IMG/VR virus record: IMGVR_UViG_3300037962_000579 | Coordinates: 1-47,480 of that record | Reading direction: 5' to 3' (one strand) | DNA length: 47,480 nucleotides | From: a virus | Taxonomy: Duplodnaviria; Caudoviricetes | In this document: in pieces, positions 8,773 through 46,953 of the stretch | Layout: every line of letters starts with the position of its first letter | How positions within the stretch are numbered: the stretch's first letter is position 1 | The notes under the pieces: model-generated | Database searches by the model: none | What the model was told of the DNA's origin: nothing | What the model saw: only the letters and a program-made list of their open reading frames with translations | Program-made: the position numbers and the translations under genes

Positions 8773-9959
8773 TATTTTAAAGTTAAATTTATTCCAAAGT
8801 TAGTTTGATATATTTTTGAATCCCAGAATTTAGTGTATTCTCCTTCAATAAATATACCTAAAGATTTAGTTACTTTCCACCCAAACATTAAACCCGCCTG
8901 GTAATCGTCCCATTGTTCAAGGCTTGAATCTTTTTTTAATCCGCCTTTACCCCAATTATTACGATTTAAGTAAGTAAAATCTTGTTCACCGGATACATAT
9001 TTATGATAAGGTAATATCCAATTACCGTAAGCATGTAACCAAAAATTATTTTTATAATGATAAAAATCAAAACCTGCAATTGGAGCAACTTCCGCAAAAG
9101 CATCAAGTCCTTCCCATACTTCTTCATTAAAACGGTTCATAAGATTACCAAATATTCTATCTCTAAAATCTCTATCACCATATGCTACTATTTCGCCTCT
9201 TTCATTACGCCAAATCCAATCAAAAAAAGTATCTCCTGTATATTCATTCGTATATGTAGTTGGCTCGTCTGTAAAACCGTAAAAATATCCTAAGCTATAC
9301 CAAGGATTTAAAGGTTCTTCTAAATTTGTTTCTGGATTTATAAATGTTTCATTTAACCATATTTCTATAGGATTATAGCCATAAGGCTTTTGATGTGTAC
9401 GATATATCGCGCCAAGTGATACACTAAATTTTTTACCAATAGGTAATCGCGCTCTTAGTTCCCCAGAAGTATATTCAAAACCTACTTTACCAGATTCTCT
9501 AGTTTCAAATTTAGCTATATGATATTTACCGGTATGTCTAACAAATAATCTTTTATTAGTAAATTTATCACCGTTTACTCTTTCTTTTTCCCAATGTAAT
9601 AAATATTCTAAACCTTTTACAGCTGCTGTAGGCGCAGATAAACCAACATTGTTTTCAGTGCCATTATAAAAATTAGGTTTACTTTCGTAACCAAACCGTG
9701 CTAATTTACGTATACCTATTCCATATCTATAATCAAATGGGTGATAAGTTGTTTCATCTATAACGTTTGGTATTGCGTATAAGTCTTCTGGATTTGTTCT
9801 TATAAAATAATCAGAAGTTTCTAATTTTGCATTAGCTATATTACCAGCTGCATAAAATGTACCGTATTTTAAAAAATCTTTATATACATTTTTAAAAAAC
9901 TGTGCGTTAGTATTAAATGATATAATTAAAGGAAATAGTACTAATATTATTTTTTTCAT
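8772..9959 (-). CDS. Putative outer-membrane beta-barrel protein
   Basis: Sec signal ...SFNTNA|QF; aromatic-rich alternating strands; terminal strand FGINLTLK. Confidence 0.6.
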   Translation of the reverse strand: MKKIILVLFPLIISFNTNAQFFKNVYKDFLKYGTFYAAGNIANAKLETSDYFIRTNPEDLYAIPNVIDETTYHPFDYRYGIGIRKLARFGYESKPNFYNGTENNVGLSAPTAAVKGLEYLLHWEKERVNGDKFTNKRLFVRHTGKYHIAKFETRESGKVGFEYTSGELRARLPIGKKFSVSLGAIYRTHQKPYGYNPIEIWLNETFINPETNLEEPLNPWYSLGYFYGFTDEPTTYTNEYTGDTFFDWIWRNERGEIVAYGDRDFRDRIFGNLMNRFNEEVWEGLDAFAEVAPIAGFDFYHYKNNFWLHAYGNWILPYHKYVSGEQDFTYLNRNNWGKGGLKKDSSLEQWDDYQAGLMFGWKVTKSLGIFIEGEYTKFWDSKIYQTNFGINLTLK

Positions 9960-28976: not shown

Positions 28977-30425
28977 TTATGATTCTTTAAGTTGTACAAA
29001 GTTATTAGCTCCTTGAACTACTAAACATCTTTCAGATAAATAGTGAACTTCCATAATGTCATCTCCTGTATAAGTTGCAGAACCAATTGAACCAGTGACC
29101 CAAGTTTTTAATCTTCTGTCATCAGTTGATGAAGTTCTATATCTTACGTGTAAGAAAGGACGTGTCATGTTTTTACCAAGATTTTGATCGTAGACAGTTG
29201 ATGTACCGGCTGGTATTAAAGTACCAGATACGTCACCAAATCCACCTCTTGCATCTGCTTGATTTAAGTATTTCCAATCAGACTTATAAAAGTCATAAGA
29301 ACCTCTTCTAAAAGCACTGAAACCTAAGTTTAATGCCATATCAGCGTCGTTATTAAAAGTACCAAATGAAGCACCACCTTGGAAGTTTGCATTAAGACCT
29401 GCTACCATATCATCAAGAGTAAGAGCTAATGAACGATTAACATATAACATGTTTTCCTCAATAGCACCTTGCTTATCAAGATTTTTAAGTAACAAATCAA
29501 AATCACCTAGCGTAGCTAAATCTTCAAAAACATTACCTCTAGTTTCAATAGCAGCAAATAAACCTTCAGTACCAAAGTCATCACCTGCGTCAGCGAGTGT
29601 GCTATCAACAGTTGACGCTCCAGGTACACCTTTTACTGATTCAACTAATGAAGTTTCAAGATAATCTTCAAATCTTAATTTTGTTTCACCTGCAGATTTT
29701 AAGTACCAAGAATAGCCGGTTTGTCCAGCTTCATCAGTAGTTTCAACCCAACCAATTTGTGCAGTATCAGAACCAGAAATTTTAAAGTGATCTTTAATAA
29801 TTATTGGCTTATTACTAAACTGCGTAAATTCGGGTTTTAATTCTCCTGACATAGTAGAGCTACCTTTTGCAAATTCAGAACCATAAACAAAAATGTTAAT
29901 TTTTTCGCTATCAGCAAAAACAACCTGAGTGCCGTCGGCCCCAGCTAGTGTTGTTTGCTTGTAAGGTAAAGCTGTAACAGCAGTCCCACTAGAAGCAGAA
30001 ACATAGCATTGTATTGTTTTAAGTCCAGTTGCAGCATCAGTTACTAAAATAGTATTACCTACTCTAATAGAGTTATTAAGAGCACTTCCTAAAGCTATAG
30101 TATTAGCAGAAGCGTCATTAACAGTAACACCTTTATTTGATTCGTCAGAATTCTTGTATGCAATGTGTAAACGATTTTGCTCAGACCAAACAACTTGGTC
30201 AGATGTCATAGGCATTTCTGCCCCTACCATTTGTAAAAAACCAGAAATAGTACGATTACCATATCTTTCTACTTCTTGTTCATATAACTCTGGCAGATAT
30301 TGTTGCGCCCAACCGGCTGTAGCCGATGATGTAAAATCGATATAATTATTATCGCTTACAACGGGGTTTGGGGTTGGAGTAAGTGAAAATGATCCACCTA
30401 ATCCTAATGATGTATTAAAAGCCAT
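28977..30425 (-). CDS. Major capsid protein
   Basis: Portal-scaffold-MCP synteny; QQYLPELYEQEVERYGNRT...WSEQNRLH motif; downstream terminator. Confidence 0.8.
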   Translation of the reverse strand: MAFNTSLGLGGSFSLTPTPNPVVSDNNYIDFTSSATAGWAQQYLPELYEQEVERYGNRTISGFLQMVGAEMPMTSDQVVWSEQNRLHIAYKNSDESNKGVTVNDASANTIALGSALNNSIRVGNTILVTDAATGLKTIQCYVSASSGTAVTALPYKQTTLAGADGTQVVFADSEKINIFVYGSEFAKGSSTMSGELKPEFTQFSNKPIIIKDHFKISGSDTAQIGWVETTDEAGQTGYSWYLKSAGETKLRFEDYLETSLVESVKGVPGASTVDSTLADAGDDFGTEGLFAAIETRGNVFEDLATLGDFDLLLKNLDKQGAIEENMLYVNRSLALTLDDMVAGLNANFQGGASFGTFNNDADMALNLGFSAFRRGSYDFYKSDWKYLNQADARGGFGDVSGTLIPAGTSTVYDQNLGKNMTRPFLHVRYRTSSTDDRRLKTWVTGSIGSATYTGDDIMEVHYLSERCLVVQGANNFVQLKES

Positions 30426-30442: not shown

Positions 30443-31714
30443 TTATTTTTTAATTTTAAATCTTAACCTAGAATTATCATCACCGCTTAAAACTCTAAAC
30501 TTAATACCGTTTGCTTCAACAACAGGCGCTGTGCGTGGAGACATATCTACATTTTTAGCTTGTATTGCAGTCTCTTTAATAGCATCAGCTTTACCTTGCT
30601 CATAAAAATGATTAACAATTTTATCAATATTTCTAGCTGAATATAAAGCTTTATGATAGCCTGGTGCATTGTTAATTAGTTGTTTATCGTCAACGAACTC
30701 GTTTACGAAATTAACAATATCGCTTTGGTATTTTTTTACACTATCAACATCTTTTATATTATAACGATACTTTTTGTTTCCAACAGTAAAATCAAAACCT
30801 TTGAAATTATCATTAAATACTTTATTGGTTTCGTTTAAAAAATGTTGCTGTTGTTGTTTTTGGTTTTCAACGATTTTGGTTTGTTCTTGGTTATATGTAT
30901 TGTAAAAGTCAATAGCTTCTTTTTGCTTAGGATCTAACTTAGACGTTAACTTAACTTCTTTGTAATACTGATCTTTCAGTCCGCCAAGAAACTTTTTGGC
31001 TTTAGCAATTTCTTCTTTGCGAGCTAATTTTTTCTTTTTAATTACTCGCGGTTCATCAACTTCTTCATCAAATGAAAAATCATCTTCCATTAAAAAAGAT
31101 ATTTCTTCATAATTAAGATGCGGTTTAGTTGATTTATAATATTCTCTTAATAAAGTATTTTCATCTACATTAGAATAATCAGCATTTAATCTTACATAAT
31201 CTTCTAATGAACCGCCTGTTTCTTTCATAAATTTAACTACTGATTGTATATTTTCGGGTAGTTGTTGCGTTTCTTTTTGCGGTAATACTTCTTCTTTTTC
31301 AGGTATAGATTCGACAGGTTTAGCATCAACAATTTCTTTTGTTTCGTTTGTTGTATCTAATTTATTTTCACTATCCTTTATTTCTTCTATTACGGGCGTT
31401 TCTTCTTTTTTACTTTCTCCGGTAATTTCTTCATTTTCTTTTTCGACGTTTTCAGTCTGTATTTTTTCGCTAGACTTGGATTCGTCGCGTAAAGGAACCT
31501 CATTTGTGCTTTGCTCTTGAACGGCATTTTCTTGAAATGTTTTTAATTTGTTTAAATCTAACTTAATAGTTCCATCTTCTTTTTTTTCAACATAATCACG
31601 ATTAACCTTTTGATTATCAGCAGGTTGTTTTTCTGTTGCTTCTTTTTGTTCTGTTGTTTCTTCTTGTTTAGTTTCTACAACTAATTCTTCTACAACTTTT
31701 TCTTCTTGTGTCAT
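30443..31714 (-). CDS. Putative scaffolding protein
   Basis: Highly acidic disordered N-half, helical C-half; between portal and MCP. Confidence 0.65.
   Translation of the reverse strand: MTQEEKVVEELVVETKQEETTEQKEATEKQPADNQKVNRDYVEKKEDGTIKLDLNKLKTFQENAVQEQSTNEVPLRDESKSSEKIQTENVEKENEEITGESKKEETPVIEEIKDSENKLDTTNETKEIVDAKPVESIPEKEEVLPQKETQQLPENIQSVVKFMKETGGSLEDYVRLNADYSNVDENTLLREYYKSTKPHLNYEEISFLMEDDFSFDEEVDEPRVIKKKKLARKEEIAKAKKFLGGLKDQYYKEVKLTSKLDPKQKEAIDFYNTYNQEQTKIVENQKQQQQHFLNETNKVFNDNFKGFDFTVGNKKYRYNIKDVDSVKKYQSDIVNFVNEFVDDKQLINNAPGYHKALYSARNIDKIVNHFYEQGKADAIKETAIQAKNVDMSPRTAPVVEANGIKFRVLSGDDNSRLRFKIKK
31390..31527 (-). CDS. Candidate overprinted 45-aa basic protein (+1 frame of scaffold)
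   Basis: MPFKSKAQMRFLYATNPSLAKKYRLKTSKKKMKKLPEKVKKKKRP; A-rich leader; local GC-rich codons. Confidence 0.6.
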   Translation of the reverse strand: MPFKSKAQMRFLYATNPSLAKKYRLKTSKKKMKKLPEKVKKKKRP

Positions 31715-31742: not shown

Positions 31743-34148
31743 TTAACGTGGATCAAACTGTTCAAGTCCAAAACCACCTAAATTATCAAACCCTGCCGAT
31801 TCAAAATTTTTAGCCGGCGCGTTTGTTTTTCTTTGTTCTATAAGTTCACTTTGCTGACTCGCTTGTATTCTAGTTCTTTCGTCTTTACGATCTTCTTTAA
31901 ACTTATCTTTTTCGTTTACTTGTTTTTTGTCAACTTCTTTTAATCTCATGTTTAGATTAAATTCTAATTGCATTAATTCTTTTTTAATCGCGGCCTCTCG
32001 CTCTAACTTTTCTAAATCAAGCTGCGCTTGTGCTTGCGCTAATTGAGCTTTTGTTTCCGCTATAGCTTGTTGTTTTTGAGTTTCAGCTAATGCAGCGGCT
32101 TGCGCGGATTGTTGATTTGCTTGTCCTTGCGCTTGAATATTTTCTTTTTGTCTTTCTCTATCAAGTGCTTCTTTTTTGGTTCTGCGTATTTTTAATAATT
32201 GATTAGCAAGTTTTATATTTCTAACTTCTCTAATATCTATTGCGTCTTCTAAATTAATACTTTTTTGTTGCAATGCTACCTGTATATTATTTTCTAATCT
32301 AGTTTTTTCTTCTTCATCAGGCGCTAATTCTATAAATATACCAAAATCATGCAAATGCAAACTTGCCATTTCTTCTAAAGTTGCAACATTAAATTTACCT
32401 AAGCTTTTAATAAAAGACTCTCTAGTGGGTGAATATTCTATTACATCTGAAACACGCATAGAAATACATTCAGCCATTGTAAGAGTTATATATAAGCTAG
32501 ACTGTAATATATGTCTTGTAGCCGTATTTGAATTTGCGGCAGCAAGTTTTTGTAAACCAACTAAAGCATTTTTATCAGGAACGCTTCCGTCTCTTGCTTC
32601 ATTTAGTCCGGTTACATCACGTATCATTTGTAAATAATATTGATATGTATTTATAAGCGATGATAGTTTTGCTTGGCCATTACTAGAAGTTAATTCAGTT
32701 ATTGGTAATCTATTACGATTCATATCACCATCTTGCGTCATTGATCTACCAATTACGCTACCCGTTTGAAAATACATATTAAGAGCTTCTTGCGGATTAT
32801 AATTTGTTCCATTGCCTAAGTCTATTTCTGCAAGTGAATCAGCATCAACATATACGCCGTCTGGCACCATACGCGACATTACCTGTTGTAATTTTAAATG
32901 CGTAAGTTGTATCATATCAGCAAAACCAGTTATTCTTTCAACAAGCGAATTTATTTTACCTCTATATTTTCTTGGCGCTACAATAGCATAACTCATTTGT
33001 GCTTTTGTAGTATCTGATTTAGGGCGCATCATATTTTTCTTTAGCTCCCATTTTAAAAGTTTATTACTACCAACTATTTTAACGCCTTCATATATAACTT
33101 CAATGGCCCTACTAACTTTTTCAAACTCTTCGCTTTTAGGCGGATTAAATGTATCATCTTTTTCTATAGCCTTATTACCACCTGTTGCTGTTTTCTTTAT
33201 TTTATATGTTTGATTCATATGTGTTTTATATTCAAAATATAAAACTGTTATAGCATTTTCGTCTTGATTATTTAAATCATAATTGCTATAGTCGTAGCTG
33301 CTTTTATTATATCCTCTATAGCTTTCAAGTTCTTCGTCTGTTAACTCAGGAAATTGTTTTTTAAGTTCGTTAACATATATTTGTTTTACTTCTCCTACAT
33401 AATATATATCTTCAAAATTAGGAGAATCAGTATAAGAATAAACTAAATCTGCGGGGTCTACATATTCAATCTTAATTCCTTCTGCTTTATTAAAAGAACT
33501 TTTTGCCGCCCCTATACCTATTACGACTAAATCATAATTTATACGTTTTATTATTTCATCGTATTTATTTTTATCAAATATACTATTTATAGCTTCTTCT
33601 TCAGCTATTTCAATACTTTGTTTATAATCTAGTTGCATGTGCAACTGTAACTCTTCATTTGTTTCAGGTAATTTAGTTTGGTCCGTATTATATATATCTA
33701 CGCCTAATTCATTAAATACCGTATCATTTAATTCTTTAGCATTCATGTCTGTTGATATAGCTTCAACATAATCTGTACGCTCTTTAATAGCTGCGGGGTC
33801 TTGCGAATATGCTTTTACATCATAAGATCTATCTGCCATACCGTTTACAACAATATCTACAAATTTTGGTATTATTGGAACTGGTTTCCAATCTAAGTTT
33901 AAATAACTTAAATCACCATTTATCGATAGCTCATCTTTATACTTTCTTACAGATTGTTCTCCTCTTGCATATAAACGTAAATTATGAAAATTTTGTCTAT
34001 AATTCATATACATATTTGAAGAAGTTGTATTACTATACCATTCATGCTCTATAGCCCTACCAACTTTTGCTCCATATTCAGCGGACATTTTTTCAGCGTC
34101 ACTTACTGCTTGACTAGGAAAAGAACCTTTAACGCCTTTATTAATCAT
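31743..34148 (-). CDS. Portal protein
   Basis: 801 aa after TerL; LDWKPVPIIPKFVDIVVNG, TGLNEARDG, coiled-coil tail. Confidence 0.82.
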   Translation of the reverse strand: MINKGVKGSFPSQAVSDAEKMSAEYGAKVGRAIEHEWYSNTTSSNMYMNYRQNFHNLRLYARGEQSVRKYKDELSINGDLSYLNLDWKPVPIIPKFVDIVVNGMADRSYDVKAYSQDPAAIKERTDYVEAISTDMNAKELNDTVFNELGVDIYNTDQTKLPETNEELQLHMQLDYKQSIEIAEEEAINSIFDKNKYDEIIKRINYDLVVIGIGAAKSSFNKAEGIKIEYVDPADLVYSYTDSPNFEDIYYVGEVKQIYVNELKKQFPELTDEELESYRGYNKSSYDYSNYDLNNQDENAITVLYFEYKTHMNQTYKIKKTATGGNKAIEKDDTFNPPKSEEFEKVSRAIEVIYEGVKIVGSNKLLKWELKKNMMRPKSDTTKAQMSYAIVAPRKYRGKINSLVERITGFADMIQLTHLKLQQVMSRMVPDGVYVDADSLAEIDLGNGTNYNPQEALNMYFQTGSVIGRSMTQDGDMNRNRLPITELTSSNGQAKLSSLINTYQYYLQMIRDVTGLNEARDGSVPDKNALVGLQKLAAANSNTATRHILQSSLYITLTMAECISMRVSDVIEYSPTRESFIKSLGKFNVATLEEMASLHLHDFGIFIELAPDEEEKTRLENNIQVALQQKSINLEDAIDIREVRNIKLANQLLKIRRTKKEALDRERQKENIQAQGQANQQSAQAAALAETQKQQAIAETKAQLAQAQAQLDLEKLEREAAIKKELMQLEFNLNMRLKEVDKKQVNEKDKFKEDRKDERTRIQASQQSELIEQRKTNAPAKNFESAGFDNLGGFGLEQFDPR

Positions 34149-36384: not shown

Positions 36385-36653
36385 TTTGATCTACCTTCTG
36401 CAAAACCTTTAAATGAATTAGCTTTTGTTTCTATGGGCTTATCATTTAATAAAGCCTCTTCTTCTTCAATACGTCTTAGTATTTCAAACGCATCAAATAT
36501 GGCTAATTTTTTTGTAGCTGCAGCATTTTTTAAACGGTCAGCTGATATATCATCTTCTGAATCTACTATAGGTTCTTTTGCTACCTTTATTAATTCATCA
36601 ACTGCCACTTGCCCAGCTTGTATTATATTCGATTTCGTTTTTTTTGTATTCAT
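36381..36653 (-). CDS. Probable terminase small subunit
   Basis: Small helical protein overlapping the terL start (ATGA). Confidence 0.5.
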   Translation of the reverse strand: MNTKKTKSNIIQAGQVAVDELIKVAKEPIVDSEDDISADRLKNAAATKKLAIFDAFEILRRIEEEEALLNDKPIETKANSFKGFAEGRSK

Positions 36654-37203
36654 ATTTAATTGCAATATCTCTAGTTTTCATACGATATAATCTATTATTA
36701 TCTATAATAAATTCATATTCGCTATTCGGAGTAAAACATATTATATCTCCCTCGTTTACTTTAGCGGCTTTTAACGAACTATTTCCATATTTTAATATAC
36801 CAATATGCTTTTGTTCTTTATTAACGCTTAAATTGTTTTTTTCAGCAAGGGGTTTTACAAAACAAAAATCATACGGAGCTTTCCATTTATTTTTGCTTTT
36901 ATATAAAAATATTTGGTCAGGATAACAAAAATATAAATCTTCTTTAAAATAAGAAGTTGAATTTTTTTCATTACCTCTTATATCATAAAATCTTCTAAAA
37001 ACATTATGATGTACAATTACTTCATCATTTATATTAATATTTGTTTCGCCAACTAAAGGTATTGATTTTACAATACCTACGCGATTTACAAATTTATGGT
37101 CTTCAATAGAAGTATTTATGATTAATTCTTTTGCACCTATTTTAACAGTATTAGTATATCTGCCATTTTTAGGTTGAATTATAAAATTAAATAAACTTTG
37201 CAT
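36598..37203 (-). CDS. Tandem GroES-like co-chaperonin (201 aa)
   Basis: Two units of FIIQP/CFVKP...GIV/GIL...DEV/GDII..., GroES-like strand order. Confidence 0.5.
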   Translation of the reverse strand: MQSLFNFIIQPKNGRYTNTVKIGAKELIINTSIEDHKFVNRVGIVKSIPLVGETNININDEVIVHHNVFRRFYDIRGNEKNSTSYFKEDLYFCYPDQIFLYKSKNKWKAPYDFCFVKPLAEKNNLSVNKEQKHIGILKYGNSSLKAAKVNEGDIICFTPNSEYEFIIDNNRLYRMKTRDIAIKYEYKKNEIEYNTSWASGS

Positions 37204-38157: not shown

Positions 38158-38445
38158 TTAACAATTCCATTTTCTACGAGCAGCTTTTCCTCTTTCAGAA
38201 GTCCAATTTTTAGATCGAGCGCAAAATGATTTTCTTCTTTTAGCTGCTTTACTGCCTGGCTTTAATTTTGAAGGAGGAGTTGTAACAGCTGTTTTTAATT
38301 TACTTCCAGGGTTGTCTCTTCTATATTTAGCAACTCCTTTTGCGGTCATACCGCCACCAGCTTTTTTACCTCGCCCTTTACCCTTTTTTACCTTAGCATA
38401 ATAACCTAAAGATTTTTTTCTTGAAGGAGCTTTTTTACTCGCCAT
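38158..38445 (-). CDS. Small basic protein (RRKSFCAR...W.C family)
   Basis: GGMTAKGVAKYRRDNPGSKLKTAVT...RRKSFCARS. Confidence 0.7.
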   Translation of the reverse strand: MASKKAPSRKKSLGYYAKVKKGKGRGKKAGGGMTAKGVAKYRRDNPGSKLKTAVTTPPSKLKPGSKAAKRRKSFCARSKNWTSERGKAARRKWNC

Positions 38446-41271: not shown

Positions 41272-41718
41272 TTATCTATTTTTATCTTTATTTATTAATT
41301 TTATTGCTTTGCTTAATACTTTATCTGTATAAGTATTACCAAGCATTATTTTGTTTCTTTGTGTGCTAGTAGGTAAATCTTCTTTACCTAATAAAATTCT
41401 ATATATTCTACTTATAAGTTGTTTGCATTTAAAAGAAGTTTTATATATATTATATTTTTGGTTGGTTCTATTTCTTTTTCGCCAAACAACTATCCAACCA
41501 TTTCTTACTAATCTTTCCCACCGATGTTTATCCCAGCTCATAGCATAAACACCGTTTATATAATCTTGTCTTGTAAATAAATTTATACAATCAAAATATA
41601 TAAGTAGCTCTAAATCAGCATCTTTTAAATTATTTGTTTTACACGCCCAACGTCTTACAACTCGATAATGTTTAAAAAGCCCTATGTCTCTTAAATCATT
41701 TGGCTCTAATCTTTTCAC
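41272..41718 (-). CDS. Conserved hypothetical protein (possible winged helix)
   Basis: DLELLIYF...LVRNGWI...YKTSFK pattern; coupled to groES. Confidence 0.6.
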   Translation of the reverse strand: MKRLEPNDLRDIGLFKHYRVVRRWACKTNNLKDADLELLIYFDCINLFTRQDYINGVYAMSWDKHRWERLVRNGWIVVWRKRNRTNQKYNIYKTSFKCKQLISRIYRILLGKEDLPTSTQRNKIMLGNTYTDKVLSKAIKLINKDKNR

Positions 41719-41975
41719 AATACAATTACTACGTCTTGTTGTTTTATGACTAAATAAATTTCTTTATCTAACTCTATATTAAACCCAGCATGCTTATCAT
41801 AAAATATACTATCACCTGCTTTTACACCTTTTACAAGTTCTCCAACAGATTTTATTATACCTTTTCTATACCTTATATCTTCTTTTAATTTATCTGTAAG
41901 TAAAAGTCCACCTTTAGTTTTCGTGGGTTTTTCTTTTATTTCTTTTATAACTAAATAAATACCTATAGCTTGCAT
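41715..41975 (-). CDS. groES: Co-chaperonin GroES
   Basis: KTKGGLLL mobile loop, SVG, VKAGD, adjacent to groEL. Confidence 0.85.
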   Translation of the reverse strand: MQAIGIYLVIKEIKEKPTKTKGGLLLTDKLKEDIRYRKGIIKSVGELVKGVKAGDSIFYDKHAGFNIELDKEIYLVIKQQDVVIVL

Positions 41976-41977
41976 AA

Positions 41978-43522
41978 TTATTTTATATTATTAATTACAC
42001 AATCTGTAGATAATATTGTAGTTGCAACAGATACTGCGTTTTTTAATGCTGTTTTTGTTACAAGCACTGGGTCAACAATACCTTTTTTAAACATATTTAC
42101 CGTTTTTCCAGTAGTAACATCAACGCCATAACCTTTTTTATTATCATAAACAAAATCTATATCAGAGTTTTGAAGTATTTTAAAATAAGGTTCACTTATT
42201 GCTTTTTTAAATATATTAGCTCCCTGTGTAGTACTGCTTATATTTTTTGCAGCGTTAAGAAGAGCTACGCCGCCACCGGGCACAATACCTTCTTTAACAG
42301 CGGCTTTTGTAGCGTGTATCGCATCTTCAACACGATCTTTCTTTTCCTTATGCTCAACATCTGAGTTTGCCCCTACAGTTATAACCGCTACGTTTCCGGA
42401 AAGTATACCTAATCTTTCTTGTAGCTTATCGGTCTTTAAACTCGGGGTGTTGCTATTTAAATGCTCTTCTATAATATTAATTCTTTCTTTAGAAGCTTCA
42501 GGTATGTCTTTTATTTTTAATACAGTTGATTTTGAATCAATAACAGCTTTTTCACAAGTACCTAACATATCTGGTTTTATAAGATCTATATCATCACCAA
42601 ATTCTTCGTTAATGTGTAAAGCCCCTGTAATTGAAGCAATATCATCTAAAAAATCTTTTTTCCAAAGGTTAAAGCCAGGCGGAGTTACCACACACGCTTT
42701 TATATTACCTTTAAGTTTATTCATTATTACAGCAGCCATAGGTTGTTTTTCTAATTCAGCTATAATAAGTATTGAACGATTATTTTCAACAGCATATTCT
42801 AAAATAAACTGTATTTTTCTAATCGTAGTAATAGGAGAGCTCACGAGTAGTACTAATGGATTGTTAAGCGTGCATGTTTGTTTTGCTACGTTGGTCACAA
42901 AATTAGGGTGCGCATATCCTTGATTTATTTGTGAGCCTTTTACTACATCAACACTTGTAATCTCTGACTTAGTATCGGGGTCCATAAGAACTACCCCATT
43001 TTTACCTACTTTATTAAATGCTTCGCCAATAACACTGCCTAATTCAATATCATTGTTTGATGATATAGAAGCAACTTGATTAAGCATACTACCTTTTATT
43101 GGCACAGCTATTTTATCTAGGTATTTAACAACAGACCCGTAAGCCTTAATTATTTCATTTTTTATATCTCTTATAGAGCTTTTATCCTGTTGTTGTTTTG
43201 CATATTTTAATATTGCATGCGCAAGAACTGTTGCGGTTGTTGTACCATCACCTGCTTCACTAACTGTTTTTCTTGCAGCTTCTTTAATTAATGTAGCCCC
43301 AATATTTTCTACTGGGTCTTGCAGATTTATAGCATTTGCTACTGTAACACCATCTTTTGTTATTGTTGGTCTGCCTATTACATCTTCTAATATAACACAC
43401 TTGCCGCTGGCTCCTAATGTAGAGCCAACAGCCTTTGTGAGTTTGTCAATTCCATTAAATATCTTATCTTGAGCATTACTGCCAAAGTTAAGATCTTTAA
43501 TTTGATCTTGTGAATTTTGCAT
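41978..43522 (-). CDS. groEL: Chaperonin GroEL (phage-encoded; no GGM tail)
   Basis: ITKDGVTVA, AGDGTTTAT, RVEDA, GIVPGGG, GIVDP..V. Confidence 0.95.
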   Translation of the reverse strand: MQNSQDQIKDLNFGSNAQDKIFNGIDKLTKAVGSTLGASGKCVILEDVIGRPTITKDGVTVANAINLQDPVENIGATLIKEAARKTVSEAGDGTTTATVLAHAILKYAKQQQDKSSIRDIKNEIIKAYGSVVKYLDKIAVPIKGSMLNQVASISSNNDIELGSVIGEAFNKVGKNGVVLMDPDTKSEITSVDVVKGSQINQGYAHPNFVTNVAKQTCTLNNPLVLLVSSPITTIRKIQFILEYAVENNRSILIIAELEKQPMAAVIMNKLKGNIKACVVTPPGFNLWKKDFLDDIASITGALHINEEFGDDIDLIKPDMLGTCEKAVIDSKSTVLKIKDIPEASKERINIIEEHLNSNTPSLKTDKLQERLGILSGNVAVITVGANSDVEHKEKKDRVEDAIHATKAAVKEGIVPGGGVALLNAAKNISSTTQGANIFKKAISEPYFKILQNSDIDFVYDNKKGYGVDVTTGKTVNMFKKGIVDPVLVTKTALKNAVSVATTILSTDCVINNIK

Positions 43523-43910: not shown

Positions 43911-44057
43911 CTATTTTTTATGCAATTTTTGTATTGCAAAATTATATGTTAAGCTTGCTCCTTTATGTTTAACAAACTTACCACTATGTTTCATAAGCTT
44001 TGGTGCTTTGCCAGGTGTTTTCATCCAATGAAAACCTTTTGGAGCTTTTACTTTCAT
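43911..44057 (-). CDS. Small basic protein (48 aa), not in ORF track
   Basis: MKVKAPKGFHWMK...KHKGASLTYNFAIQKLHKK; ATGA overlap with the upstream gene. Confidence 0.6.
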   Translation of the reverse strand: MKVKAPKGFHWMKTPGKAPKLMKHSGKFVKHKGASLTYNFAIQKLHKK

Positions 44058-44563
44058 TGTCGCTTTAAATTTGTAAGTTTCTTTTTCATTTTCTTTGCTT
44101 TAGGAAATGCATGATCTTTTGGATGCATATCTTTAGAGTGCATGTCTTTTGGCCCCTCATGTCCTATATATTTTAGCCCTTTATTTTTATTTGCTAACTC
44201 TTCAAGCCCCCTTTCATGATCCATTACTTTTTCAAACATTTCTTTTGGCTTGCCTATATTAAAATCCATAGCTTTTGCATTTTCAATATCTAATTGTTTA
44301 AAAGGCATATCGTTATTTTTTGTACCTCTATTACCCATAACTCTAAGTATTTTACCTTGCACTTTCATACCCATAGCTTTTGGATGCATATCCTTAGAAT
44401 GCATATCTTTAGAATGCATATCTTTAGAGTGCATATCTTTAGAGTGCATATCTTTAGTATGATAATCTTTTGAATGCATGTCCTTAGGATGCATATCTTT
44501 CATTTTATATTTTTCATATATTTTTGATCCCTGCAACGGCATCAATCCTTTTTTACCTGGCAT
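44054..44563 (-). CDS. Lys/Met/His-rich pentapeptide-repeat protein
   Basis: KDMH(S/P) repeats in two blocks. Confidence 0.7.
   Translation of the reverse strand: MPGKKGLMPLQGSKIYEKYKMKDMHPKDMHSKDYHTKDMHSKDMHSKDMHSKDMHSKDMHPKAMGMKVQGKILRVMGNRGTKNNDMPFKQLDIENAKAMDFNIGKPKEMFEKVMDHERGLEELANKNKGLKYIGHEGPKDMHSKDMHPKDHAFPKAKKMKKKLTNLKRQ
44381..44500. repeat. Eight tandem 15-bp repeats (KDMHS units)
   Basis: AGA(A/G)TGCATATCTTT-type units; two more near 44120-44150. Confidence 0.9.
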
Positions 44564-46701: not shown

Positions 46702-46953
46702 TTAGTGCTTGCAGCCGCATCTTTTTTTTTTAGTTCCTTTACCAAACTGCCCTCTATTAGCTTTTACTGATACAAAACGCCTTTTGGTGTGATCATAGTC
46801 TTTTCCCTTAATATTATTACCTGCTTTTATAGCTTTTCTACGCTTTCTTTGGTTTTCGGCGCGCATTTTTTTTCTTCTACGCGTGTTTGCAGTCGCTAAA
46901 TCACGCTTTTTTTTAGCTATAGAAGCTTTTCTAGATAATTTTTGTTTCGCCAT
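46702..46953 (-). CDS. Small basic protein with minimal HNH-like motif
   Basis: KDYDH...VKANRG; first gene of the leftward arm. Confidence 0.55.
   Translation of the reverse strand: MAKQKLSRKASIAKKKRDLATANTRRRKKMRAENQRKRRKAIKAGNNIKGKDYDHTKRRFVSVKANRGQFGKGTKKKRCGCKH

Follow-up and report, generated by a model that had tools for sequence, protein, structure and literature searches.

The window analysed here, the whole 47,480-nucleotide stretch of IMG/VR virus record IMGVR_UViG_3300037962_000579, carries on its minus strand a 423-aa gene (30443..31714) that lies downstream of the terminase gene and between the portal and major capsid genes. The upstream neighbour (31743..34148, minus) encodes a portal protein (phrog_6547, E 2e-147), and the downstream neighbour (28977..30425, minus) matches the virion structural protein family phrog_13704 (E 3.4e-95) and is likely, from its size and position, the major capsid protein gene. 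The 423-aa product comprises an acidic, variable N-terminal arm (residues 1-150; 31265..31714, minus; 43 D+E, 23 K+R) and is predicted to be elongated, with long helices and a flexible arm (mean pLDDT 77, pTM 0.39). Sequence searches of Pfam, PHROG and PDB, and a Foldseek search of the PDB with the C-terminal domain, gave no match to it, and the capsid protein, the portal protein and this C-domain gave no meaningful PDB match by sequence; the ESM Atlas offered PF09306 as a lead (score 0.80, 15% of members). Homologues are labelled 'structural protein' in the records of the elemo phages and phi38:1. The gene position, the acidic arm and the helical model point to a likely scaffold or head-core protein, referred to below as the host, as its arm holds a nested ORF.

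The closest cultured relatives of this phage are the Flavobacterium elemo phages, Maribacter phage Panino and Tenacibaculum phage Gundel_1, with Cellulophaga phage phi38:1 as a weak relative; its reads come from marine samples, and it is a Flavobacteriia-type phage. It also encodes GroEL (phrog_5725) and two GroES-like genes (41715-43522 and 36598-37203, both minus). The ATG of the host gene follows an AT-rich leader that is conserved. A host-frame motif of the DG-x-x-K-x-D-L type (residues 47-54; 31553..31576, minus) recurs ahead of the nested start, as judged by eye and without a count, even in homologues that lack the nested peptide, which suggests that translation of the host frame begins at its own ATG.

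Within the host gene, an ATG-started ORF of 45 aa (31390..31527, minus) occupies the +1 frame and spans host codons 63-108. An initial annotation had placed a small ORF at these positions in the +1 frame and was silent on the strand; the ORF was confirmed with an identical sequence, its strand is minus, and a plus-strand reading was ruled out by the stops present. The encoded peptide, designated type A and PHROG 1375-like, is basic (18 K+R, 1 D+E), and the overlapped host segment is acidic (13 D+E, 6 K+R). When the host segment was re-coded synonymously 20,000 times, 6.9% of the versions contained an ATG-started open 45-codon +1 frame, so the bare ORF is unremarkable and could be due to chance; its conservation is not. 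The initial annotation had also argued that a Glu-rich frame automatically yields a Lys-rich +1 frame but leaves the N-terminal motif unexplained; the 20,000 re-codings recovered at most 13 of the first 17 peptide residues, with a mean of 6.3.

The nested ATG is preceded by the leader CAAGAAAATG (31528..31542, minus), which is A-rich, T-poor and without a Shine-Dalgarno sequence, and which likely serves as an internal translation start; A-rich start sites are typical of Bacteroidota. Positions -2, -5, -6 and -8 are A in 86-96% of 97 nested starts vs 37-42% of 2,193 other +1 ATGs, an enrichment that is only supportive, the compared sequences being related and the host frame rich in Glu and Lys. 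RNA libraries X15-X17 contain contigs over parts of the ORF, which give no strand, start or level and possibly derive from DNA. The peptide is predicted to fold into three short helices (residues 6-15, 17-26 and 29-33) followed by a Lys tail (pLDDT 92); in Foldseek searches this model matched uncharacterised viral proteins only, with no match in the PDB.

Conservation of the overlap was assessed in 81 loci, namely the window and the best 80 of 597 confirmed IMG/VR homologues of the host gene. An ATG-started relative of the peptide was present in the +1 frame at host codon 43-65 in 59 of the 81 loci, and in 56 of 76 distinct host CDS once identical and incomplete CDS had been removed; the ATG and ORF, on whose conservation in related scaffold genes the initial annotation had staked its reading, are thus kept. 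Peptide subtypes occur, one of them with two Cys. Locus L014 alone carries the motif without the ATG, and six further 'no ATG' flags proved to be pattern mismatches, evident in the output. Because 20 of the 76 host genes are devoid of the peptide, it is, judging from these sequences, dispensable or replaceable; host genes without the nested ORF are shorter (median 391.5 vs 408 aa). On a FastTree tree of the host C-domain, peptide presence changed 10 times, with 8 changes forced by well-supported branches, indicating that the peptide has been gained or lost repeatedly, through at least eight changes. Two pairs of loci (L020 and L030, L019 and L029) combine near-identical host C-domains with differing N-arms and peptide subtypes, which suggests that the N-arm recombines as a module.

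A second retrieval was based on a peptide pattern whose query was built from nested copies, and yielded 80 loci, 77 of which were parsed. The ATG was present in all 77 and the host frame was open over the peptide in 76; among these 76 open frames, 74 run for at least 150 codons and two are cut by contig ends. The sole exception, L257, exhibits a host-frame TAA inside the peptide region.

The pattern of nucleotide change in 35 disjoint pairs distinguishes the two frames. Per 1,000 possible changes, we counted 90.8 that were silent in the peptide, 24.1 that were silent in the host and 28.7 that were silent in neither, so that peptide-silent changes were 3.8 times commoner than host-silent ones (p 2.7e-13 for the peptide-silent contrast), and host-silent changes compared with doubly non-silent ones gave p 0.43. 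The subfamily filter removed no pair, and the mixed-subfamily pairs among the 35 lower, rather than raise, the contrast. These rates indicate that the peptide frame is under purifying selection and that the overlapped host residues are under none, changing freely apart from the avoidance of stops. The same substitution comparisons speak to the atypical host codons listed in the initial annotation. The conservation of synonymous sites that the initial annotation had proposed to look for was likewise found, host third positions differing at 0.068 in the peptide core vs 0.185 in the upstream arm, 0.287 in the downstream arm and 0.187 in the C-domain.

Stop avoidance was evaluated at at-risk sites, where a peptide codon that ends in T and is followed by AA, AG or GA creates a host-frame stop. 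T-ending codons were found at none of 924 at-risk nested sites vs 175 of 1,243 safe sites, and at 90 of 271 at-risk sites of stand-alone genes; in the second retrieval they were again absent (0/645). The equivalent -1 frame is open in 2 of 24 stand-alone genes, and re-coding of the window peptide leaves the host frame open in 1 of 5,000 cases. The host frame was open in 96 of 96 nested copies, a count that was made after omission of L115 (a frameshifted contig) and L120 (a contig end) and that is partly circular, the nested set being partly defined by the host ORF. The codon counts indicate that stops are avoided in the host frame beyond chance and that this frame is kept open through the overlap. 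On sequence evidence, we consider real dual coding of the stretch to be very likely.

The initial annotation had pointed to a family of small stand-alone phage ORFs, and such a family exists. The window peptide matches phrog_1375 (E 3.8e-5, residues 3-44), as do 23 of 28 aligned members, and it has 13 database homologues of 43-67 aa with identity of up to 75%; its identity to stand-alone loci of other phages is 53-70%. The family profile retrieved 4,035 clusters (50% identity), and the peptide search added 79 new loci, comprising 50 nested in the scaffold-like gene, 4 nested in another gene and 25 stand-alone copies from unrelated phages of 33-60% GC. A tblastn search of cultured phages with the window peptide gave no match; other family members did find cultured phages. 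PHROG 1375, which includes Mycobacterium phage Barnyard gp9 (E 3.1e-24), shares with the window peptide its size, its basic character and the FxSxxQ and LP elements, whereas Barnyard gp9 is an annotated stand-alone gene and the window peptide lies entirely within another gene, out of frame, and has no annotation.

The surroundings of the stand-alone members were surveyed with 80 proteins, a selection of the flanking ORFs, and placed a terminase, portal or major head protein near 14 of 23 loci; other stand-alone members lie beside tail-fibre, ParA, nuclease or glycosyltransferase genes. Barnyard gp9 has gp7 on one side and the genes for protease, scaffold and head proteins on the other, and its relatives in cluster B mycobacteriophages are located near 60 kb in 68 kb genomes. 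The 023Pt_psg01 member lies within a run of basic ORFs between the portal and head genes, and in the cultured phage S-CBS2 the copy lacks an annotation and sits among basic ORFs that follow the head gene. Runs comparable to these are found in the window, which has stand-alone small basic ORFs at 38158-38445, 43911-44057, 44054-44563 and 46702-46953 (all minus), one of them a DUF6321 protein and one with KDMHS repeats. Unannotated family members are present in the deposited genomes NC_015463 (34225-34335), HQ332139 (near 7034, minus) and OQ984151 (near 34579).

The motif also heads long proteins. Among the best 150 representatives of the family, of which 148 were parsed, 51 extend at least 100 residues past the motif, and the motif is placed no later than residue 3 in 49 of these 51 and is internal in none. 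K-x-A occurs within 16 residues after the leader in 27 of the 51 long members vs 25% of shuffled sequences, a pattern picked after viewing, and E-[SGA] follows the leader in 21 of 51 vs 34% of shuffled sequences. In the long members P0017-P0162, K-x-A, E-S or G-G often come after the leader and recur in the cargo; these motifs are possibly lineage-specific prohead protease sites. A more distant branch is formed by PHROG 16759, 22033 and 25121 (201phi2-1 gp383, CBB_322 and RaK2 gp156), whose members start with MPSKSxxQ and match the family profile at E 3.4e-10 to 8.3e-4 (Z=1000). The gp383 model matches the peptide model by Foldseek (prob 0.85), although members of this branch are longer, contain an insertion and are not nested, and the window peptide does not match these PHROGs. 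A profile search of the phiKZ and RaK2 genomes gave nothing at first look, although RaK2 has a distant member.

Several other assignments were discarded. DUF3008 (PF11450) is the nearest Pfam-bearing ESM Atlas cluster (score 0.85, 37% of members) and is a lead only, with none of 28 members matching it at E up to 10. With an E cut-off of 10, none of 28 type A and none of 11 type B peptides matched ArfA (PF03889), and PDB sequence matches of the family profile were rejected as sums of weak repeats in beta-propellers.

The term type B denotes a second nested +1 peptide downstream of type A in the same arm, which is intact in 18 of the 81 loci (L004:1850-1963, L021:3284-3397 and 16 more) with a tail of the TPHRN-KKYYRKKKH type. 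It weakly resembles DUF7230/phrog_6310, with a weak DUF7230 match in 6 of 11 peptides. The window contains a degenerate 29-codon +1 ORF (31237..31326, minus) that keeps only the KKYYRKKK part and is probably a type B remnant. Short Lys-rich +1 ORFs with an ATG (21-29 aa, host codons 48-99) are seen in L041, L048, L050, L051, L055, L059, L060 and L062; those of L041, L050 and L060 occupy the type A position.

The type A cassette is also found in a second, unrelated host, 500-1,200 codons deep in giant ORFs, with 4 such loci in the first peptide search and 12 in the second retrieval. It lies there in the +1 frame, as in the scaffold-like host, and its host-frame reading is likewise of the DAVQ..ST type. 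In Flavobacterium phage elemoF 6-3D, an unannotated nested ORF of 42 aa (NC_055853 52379-52507, L171:7001-7129; profile E 9.3e-14) is located inside gp18 (48718-59802), a protein of 3,694 aa labelled 'structural protein'. The tblastn match to the cassette is shared by 68 elemo records, one of which (elemoF 6-3D) was inspected, and the elemo scaffold-like gene has no nested copy. MW202828 carries a nested copy at 9593-9724 (minus) inside UOF82488 (3,859 aa), and further copies in giant genes (1,800-3,900 aa) are present in L117, L127, L142, L148 and a subset of L185-L258. A partial second copy (DAVQKQ) lies ahead of the cassette in the host frame of L171, which suggests a duplicated or decayed cassette. 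The genomes of Panino and phi38:1 gave no peptide match, and the 1,984-aa ORF of the window showed neither similarity to the giant hosts nor a cassette copy. Four giant-host copies group together in a peptide tree (support 99/99), which, built on 43 columns, lacks the resolution for counting nesting events or deciding on a single origin of the nested copies. The occurrence in two unrelated host genes, together with the patchy presence, suggests that the peptide is a movable cassette.

With regard to function, we lean towards a reading in which this stretch, conserved in two frames, encodes a separately started basic peptide that is predicted to enter the head and bind packaged DNA. Ribosomes would start at the A-rich internal ATG on a late head mRNA; the conserved helical N-terminal part (P2, F3, S5, Q8, A20 and P36) would act as a head-targeting or docking element on the prohead; and the Lys tail would bind and neutralise the packaged DNA. 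A head role is supported indirectly by the head-module context, by the N-terminal position of the motif on diverse cargo and by the presence of distant fusions in virions. CBB_322 was identified in virions by mass spectrometry with 30 peptides and 43.57% coverage (PMC5259590), and RaK2 gp156 with 2 peptides and 6.2% coverage (PMC3622015). Both are distant-branch fusions that match the profile weakly (E 2.8e-4 and 8.3e-4, Z=1000), and their mass-spectrometry peptides may come from the C-terminal domains. A closer short member, 201phi2-1 gp383 (E 3.4e-10), carries no mass-spectrometry note, its neighbour gp382 carries one, and a term search of PMC11512511 returned no mention of gp383. The members located outside head modules, and the host genes devoid of the peptide, likewise weigh against a head role. 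The internal proteins of T4 are diverse, share only a common targeting sequence and contact DNA through lysines (PMC3012670). The likeness lies in a conserved N-terminal element on diverse cargo and in basic proteins, which in T4 lie inside the head with lysines on DNA phosphates (PMC3012670); unlike the T4 capsid targeting sequence, the element here spans ~40 aa and mostly stands alone, and the comparison is an analogy.

Other readings of the overlap were weighed against this one. An untranslated +1 ORF, arising as a side effect of a Glu-rich motif conserved in the host or left over from an inserted gene, would account for the Lys-rich composition and for the open ATG-started frame seen among the re-codings; the 3.8-fold excess of peptide-silent changes strongly disfavours it, as do the identity to database homologues and stand-alone loci and the same frame being kept in two unrelated host genes, and we regard it as very improbable. 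The mirror-image proposal, in which the host N-arm is untranslated and the peptide is an ordinary small gene before a shorter scaffold starting further down, appears equally remote: it would fit the lack of purifying selection on the overlapped host residues and the shorter cultured homologues of elemo and Manatee (339 and 357 aa), but it is at odds with the purging of host-frame stops in both locus sets, with the conserved AT-rich leader at the host ATG and the upstream host-frame motif, with the ordinary third-position variation in the flanks, and with the window's arm, whose first Met does not come before residue 163. A fusion product, with the host N-arm joined to the basic tail through a programmed +1 frameshift or slippage of the polymerase in an A-rich run, is also quite unlikely, if less so. 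In-frame joins of host N-arm and peptide do exist in four database proteins (P0006, P0015, P0018 and P0089), A-runs precede the nested ATG, and L014 has the motif without an ATG. A frameshift would not need the Met, however, which is nearly invariant (77 of 77 in the second retrieval, with L014 the one exception), the cassette also lies deep in giant genes, and the junction points differ; L115 (2931-3330) exhibits a one-base deletion in the same region, resembling assembly indels, and the four fusions are probably indel errors in A-runs.

The remaining alternative accepts a real gene and has the peptide act in the infected cell on the ribosome, RNA polymerase or nucleoid of the host, the head operon merely providing late, high expression. 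RNA binding is common among small, Lys-rich helical peptides, the family occurs in phages whose capsid proteins differ widely, as would fit a universal host target, and gp383 of 201phi2-1 lacks a virion note. Against this, the 28 type A and 11 type B peptides matched no ArfA or ribosomal-protein family, even at E values as high as 10, the motif forms the N-terminus of long, diverse proteins, two distant ones of which occur in virions, and head-module neighbours dominate. We therefore rate a host-directed role as unlikely, though well worth keeping in mind, and continue to lean towards the head-internal, DNA-binding peptide.

The overprinting proposed in the initial annotation stands in that both frames are constrained; its polarity is probably the reverse of the usual one, and the term scaffold rests on position and the helical model. 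The breadth of the family and the asymmetry of selection, with a constrained peptide frame and free host residues, suggest that the peptide gene probably came first and that the acidic host segment was overprinted on it. Because Lys codons read one base earlier give Glu, Gln or Lys, the host protein would tolerate the cassette as a disordered acidic linker after removal of its host-frame stops. In phiX174, gene E is a small gene lying out of frame (+1) in scaffold gene D with an internal start; it encodes the lysis protein and is usually read as the newer frame. The window peptide is likewise nested in what is likely a scaffold gene and probably starts internally, but unlike E it has thousands of stand-alone relatives, a constrained frame, repeated gain and loss, and two hosts. 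A wider generalisation, which we put forward as speculative and rather doubtful, is that Lys-rich peptide genes of tailed phages travel as cassettes concealed in the +1 frame of genes for virion proteins, their -1 frame providing an acidic linker, that the acidic arm encoded by the same DNA captures the basic peptide and takes it into the head, and that MPFKS is a capsid-targeting leader common to tailed phages as different as podophages and jumbo phages.

Genes nested within other genes have precedents in phages, where they as a rule arose in a single lineage and in the newer frame. What sets the present case apart is a large stand-alone family (4,035 clusters) that is nested in the same frame in two hosts, under constraint, and that shapes the host sequence; a literature search, incomplete in coverage, found no description of the nested overlap, and a match to 'MPFKS' in one phage paper (PMC12919940) was a chance match. 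An estimated ~3,400 IMG/VR stretches match the host-gene patterns, so that many copies are likely missed by gene callers; if the wider generalisation is true, a whole layer of genes within the acidic linkers of phage structural genes would have been overlooked systematically. The stand-alone, nested, lost and fused copies provide a natural series for the evolution of overlaps, and the elemo phages on Flavobacterium sp. BAL314 offer a cultured system with an unannotated nested copy in which these proposals are directly testable. Should the leader direct cargo into heads, a huge unknown family would gain a function, and phage engineering a tag.
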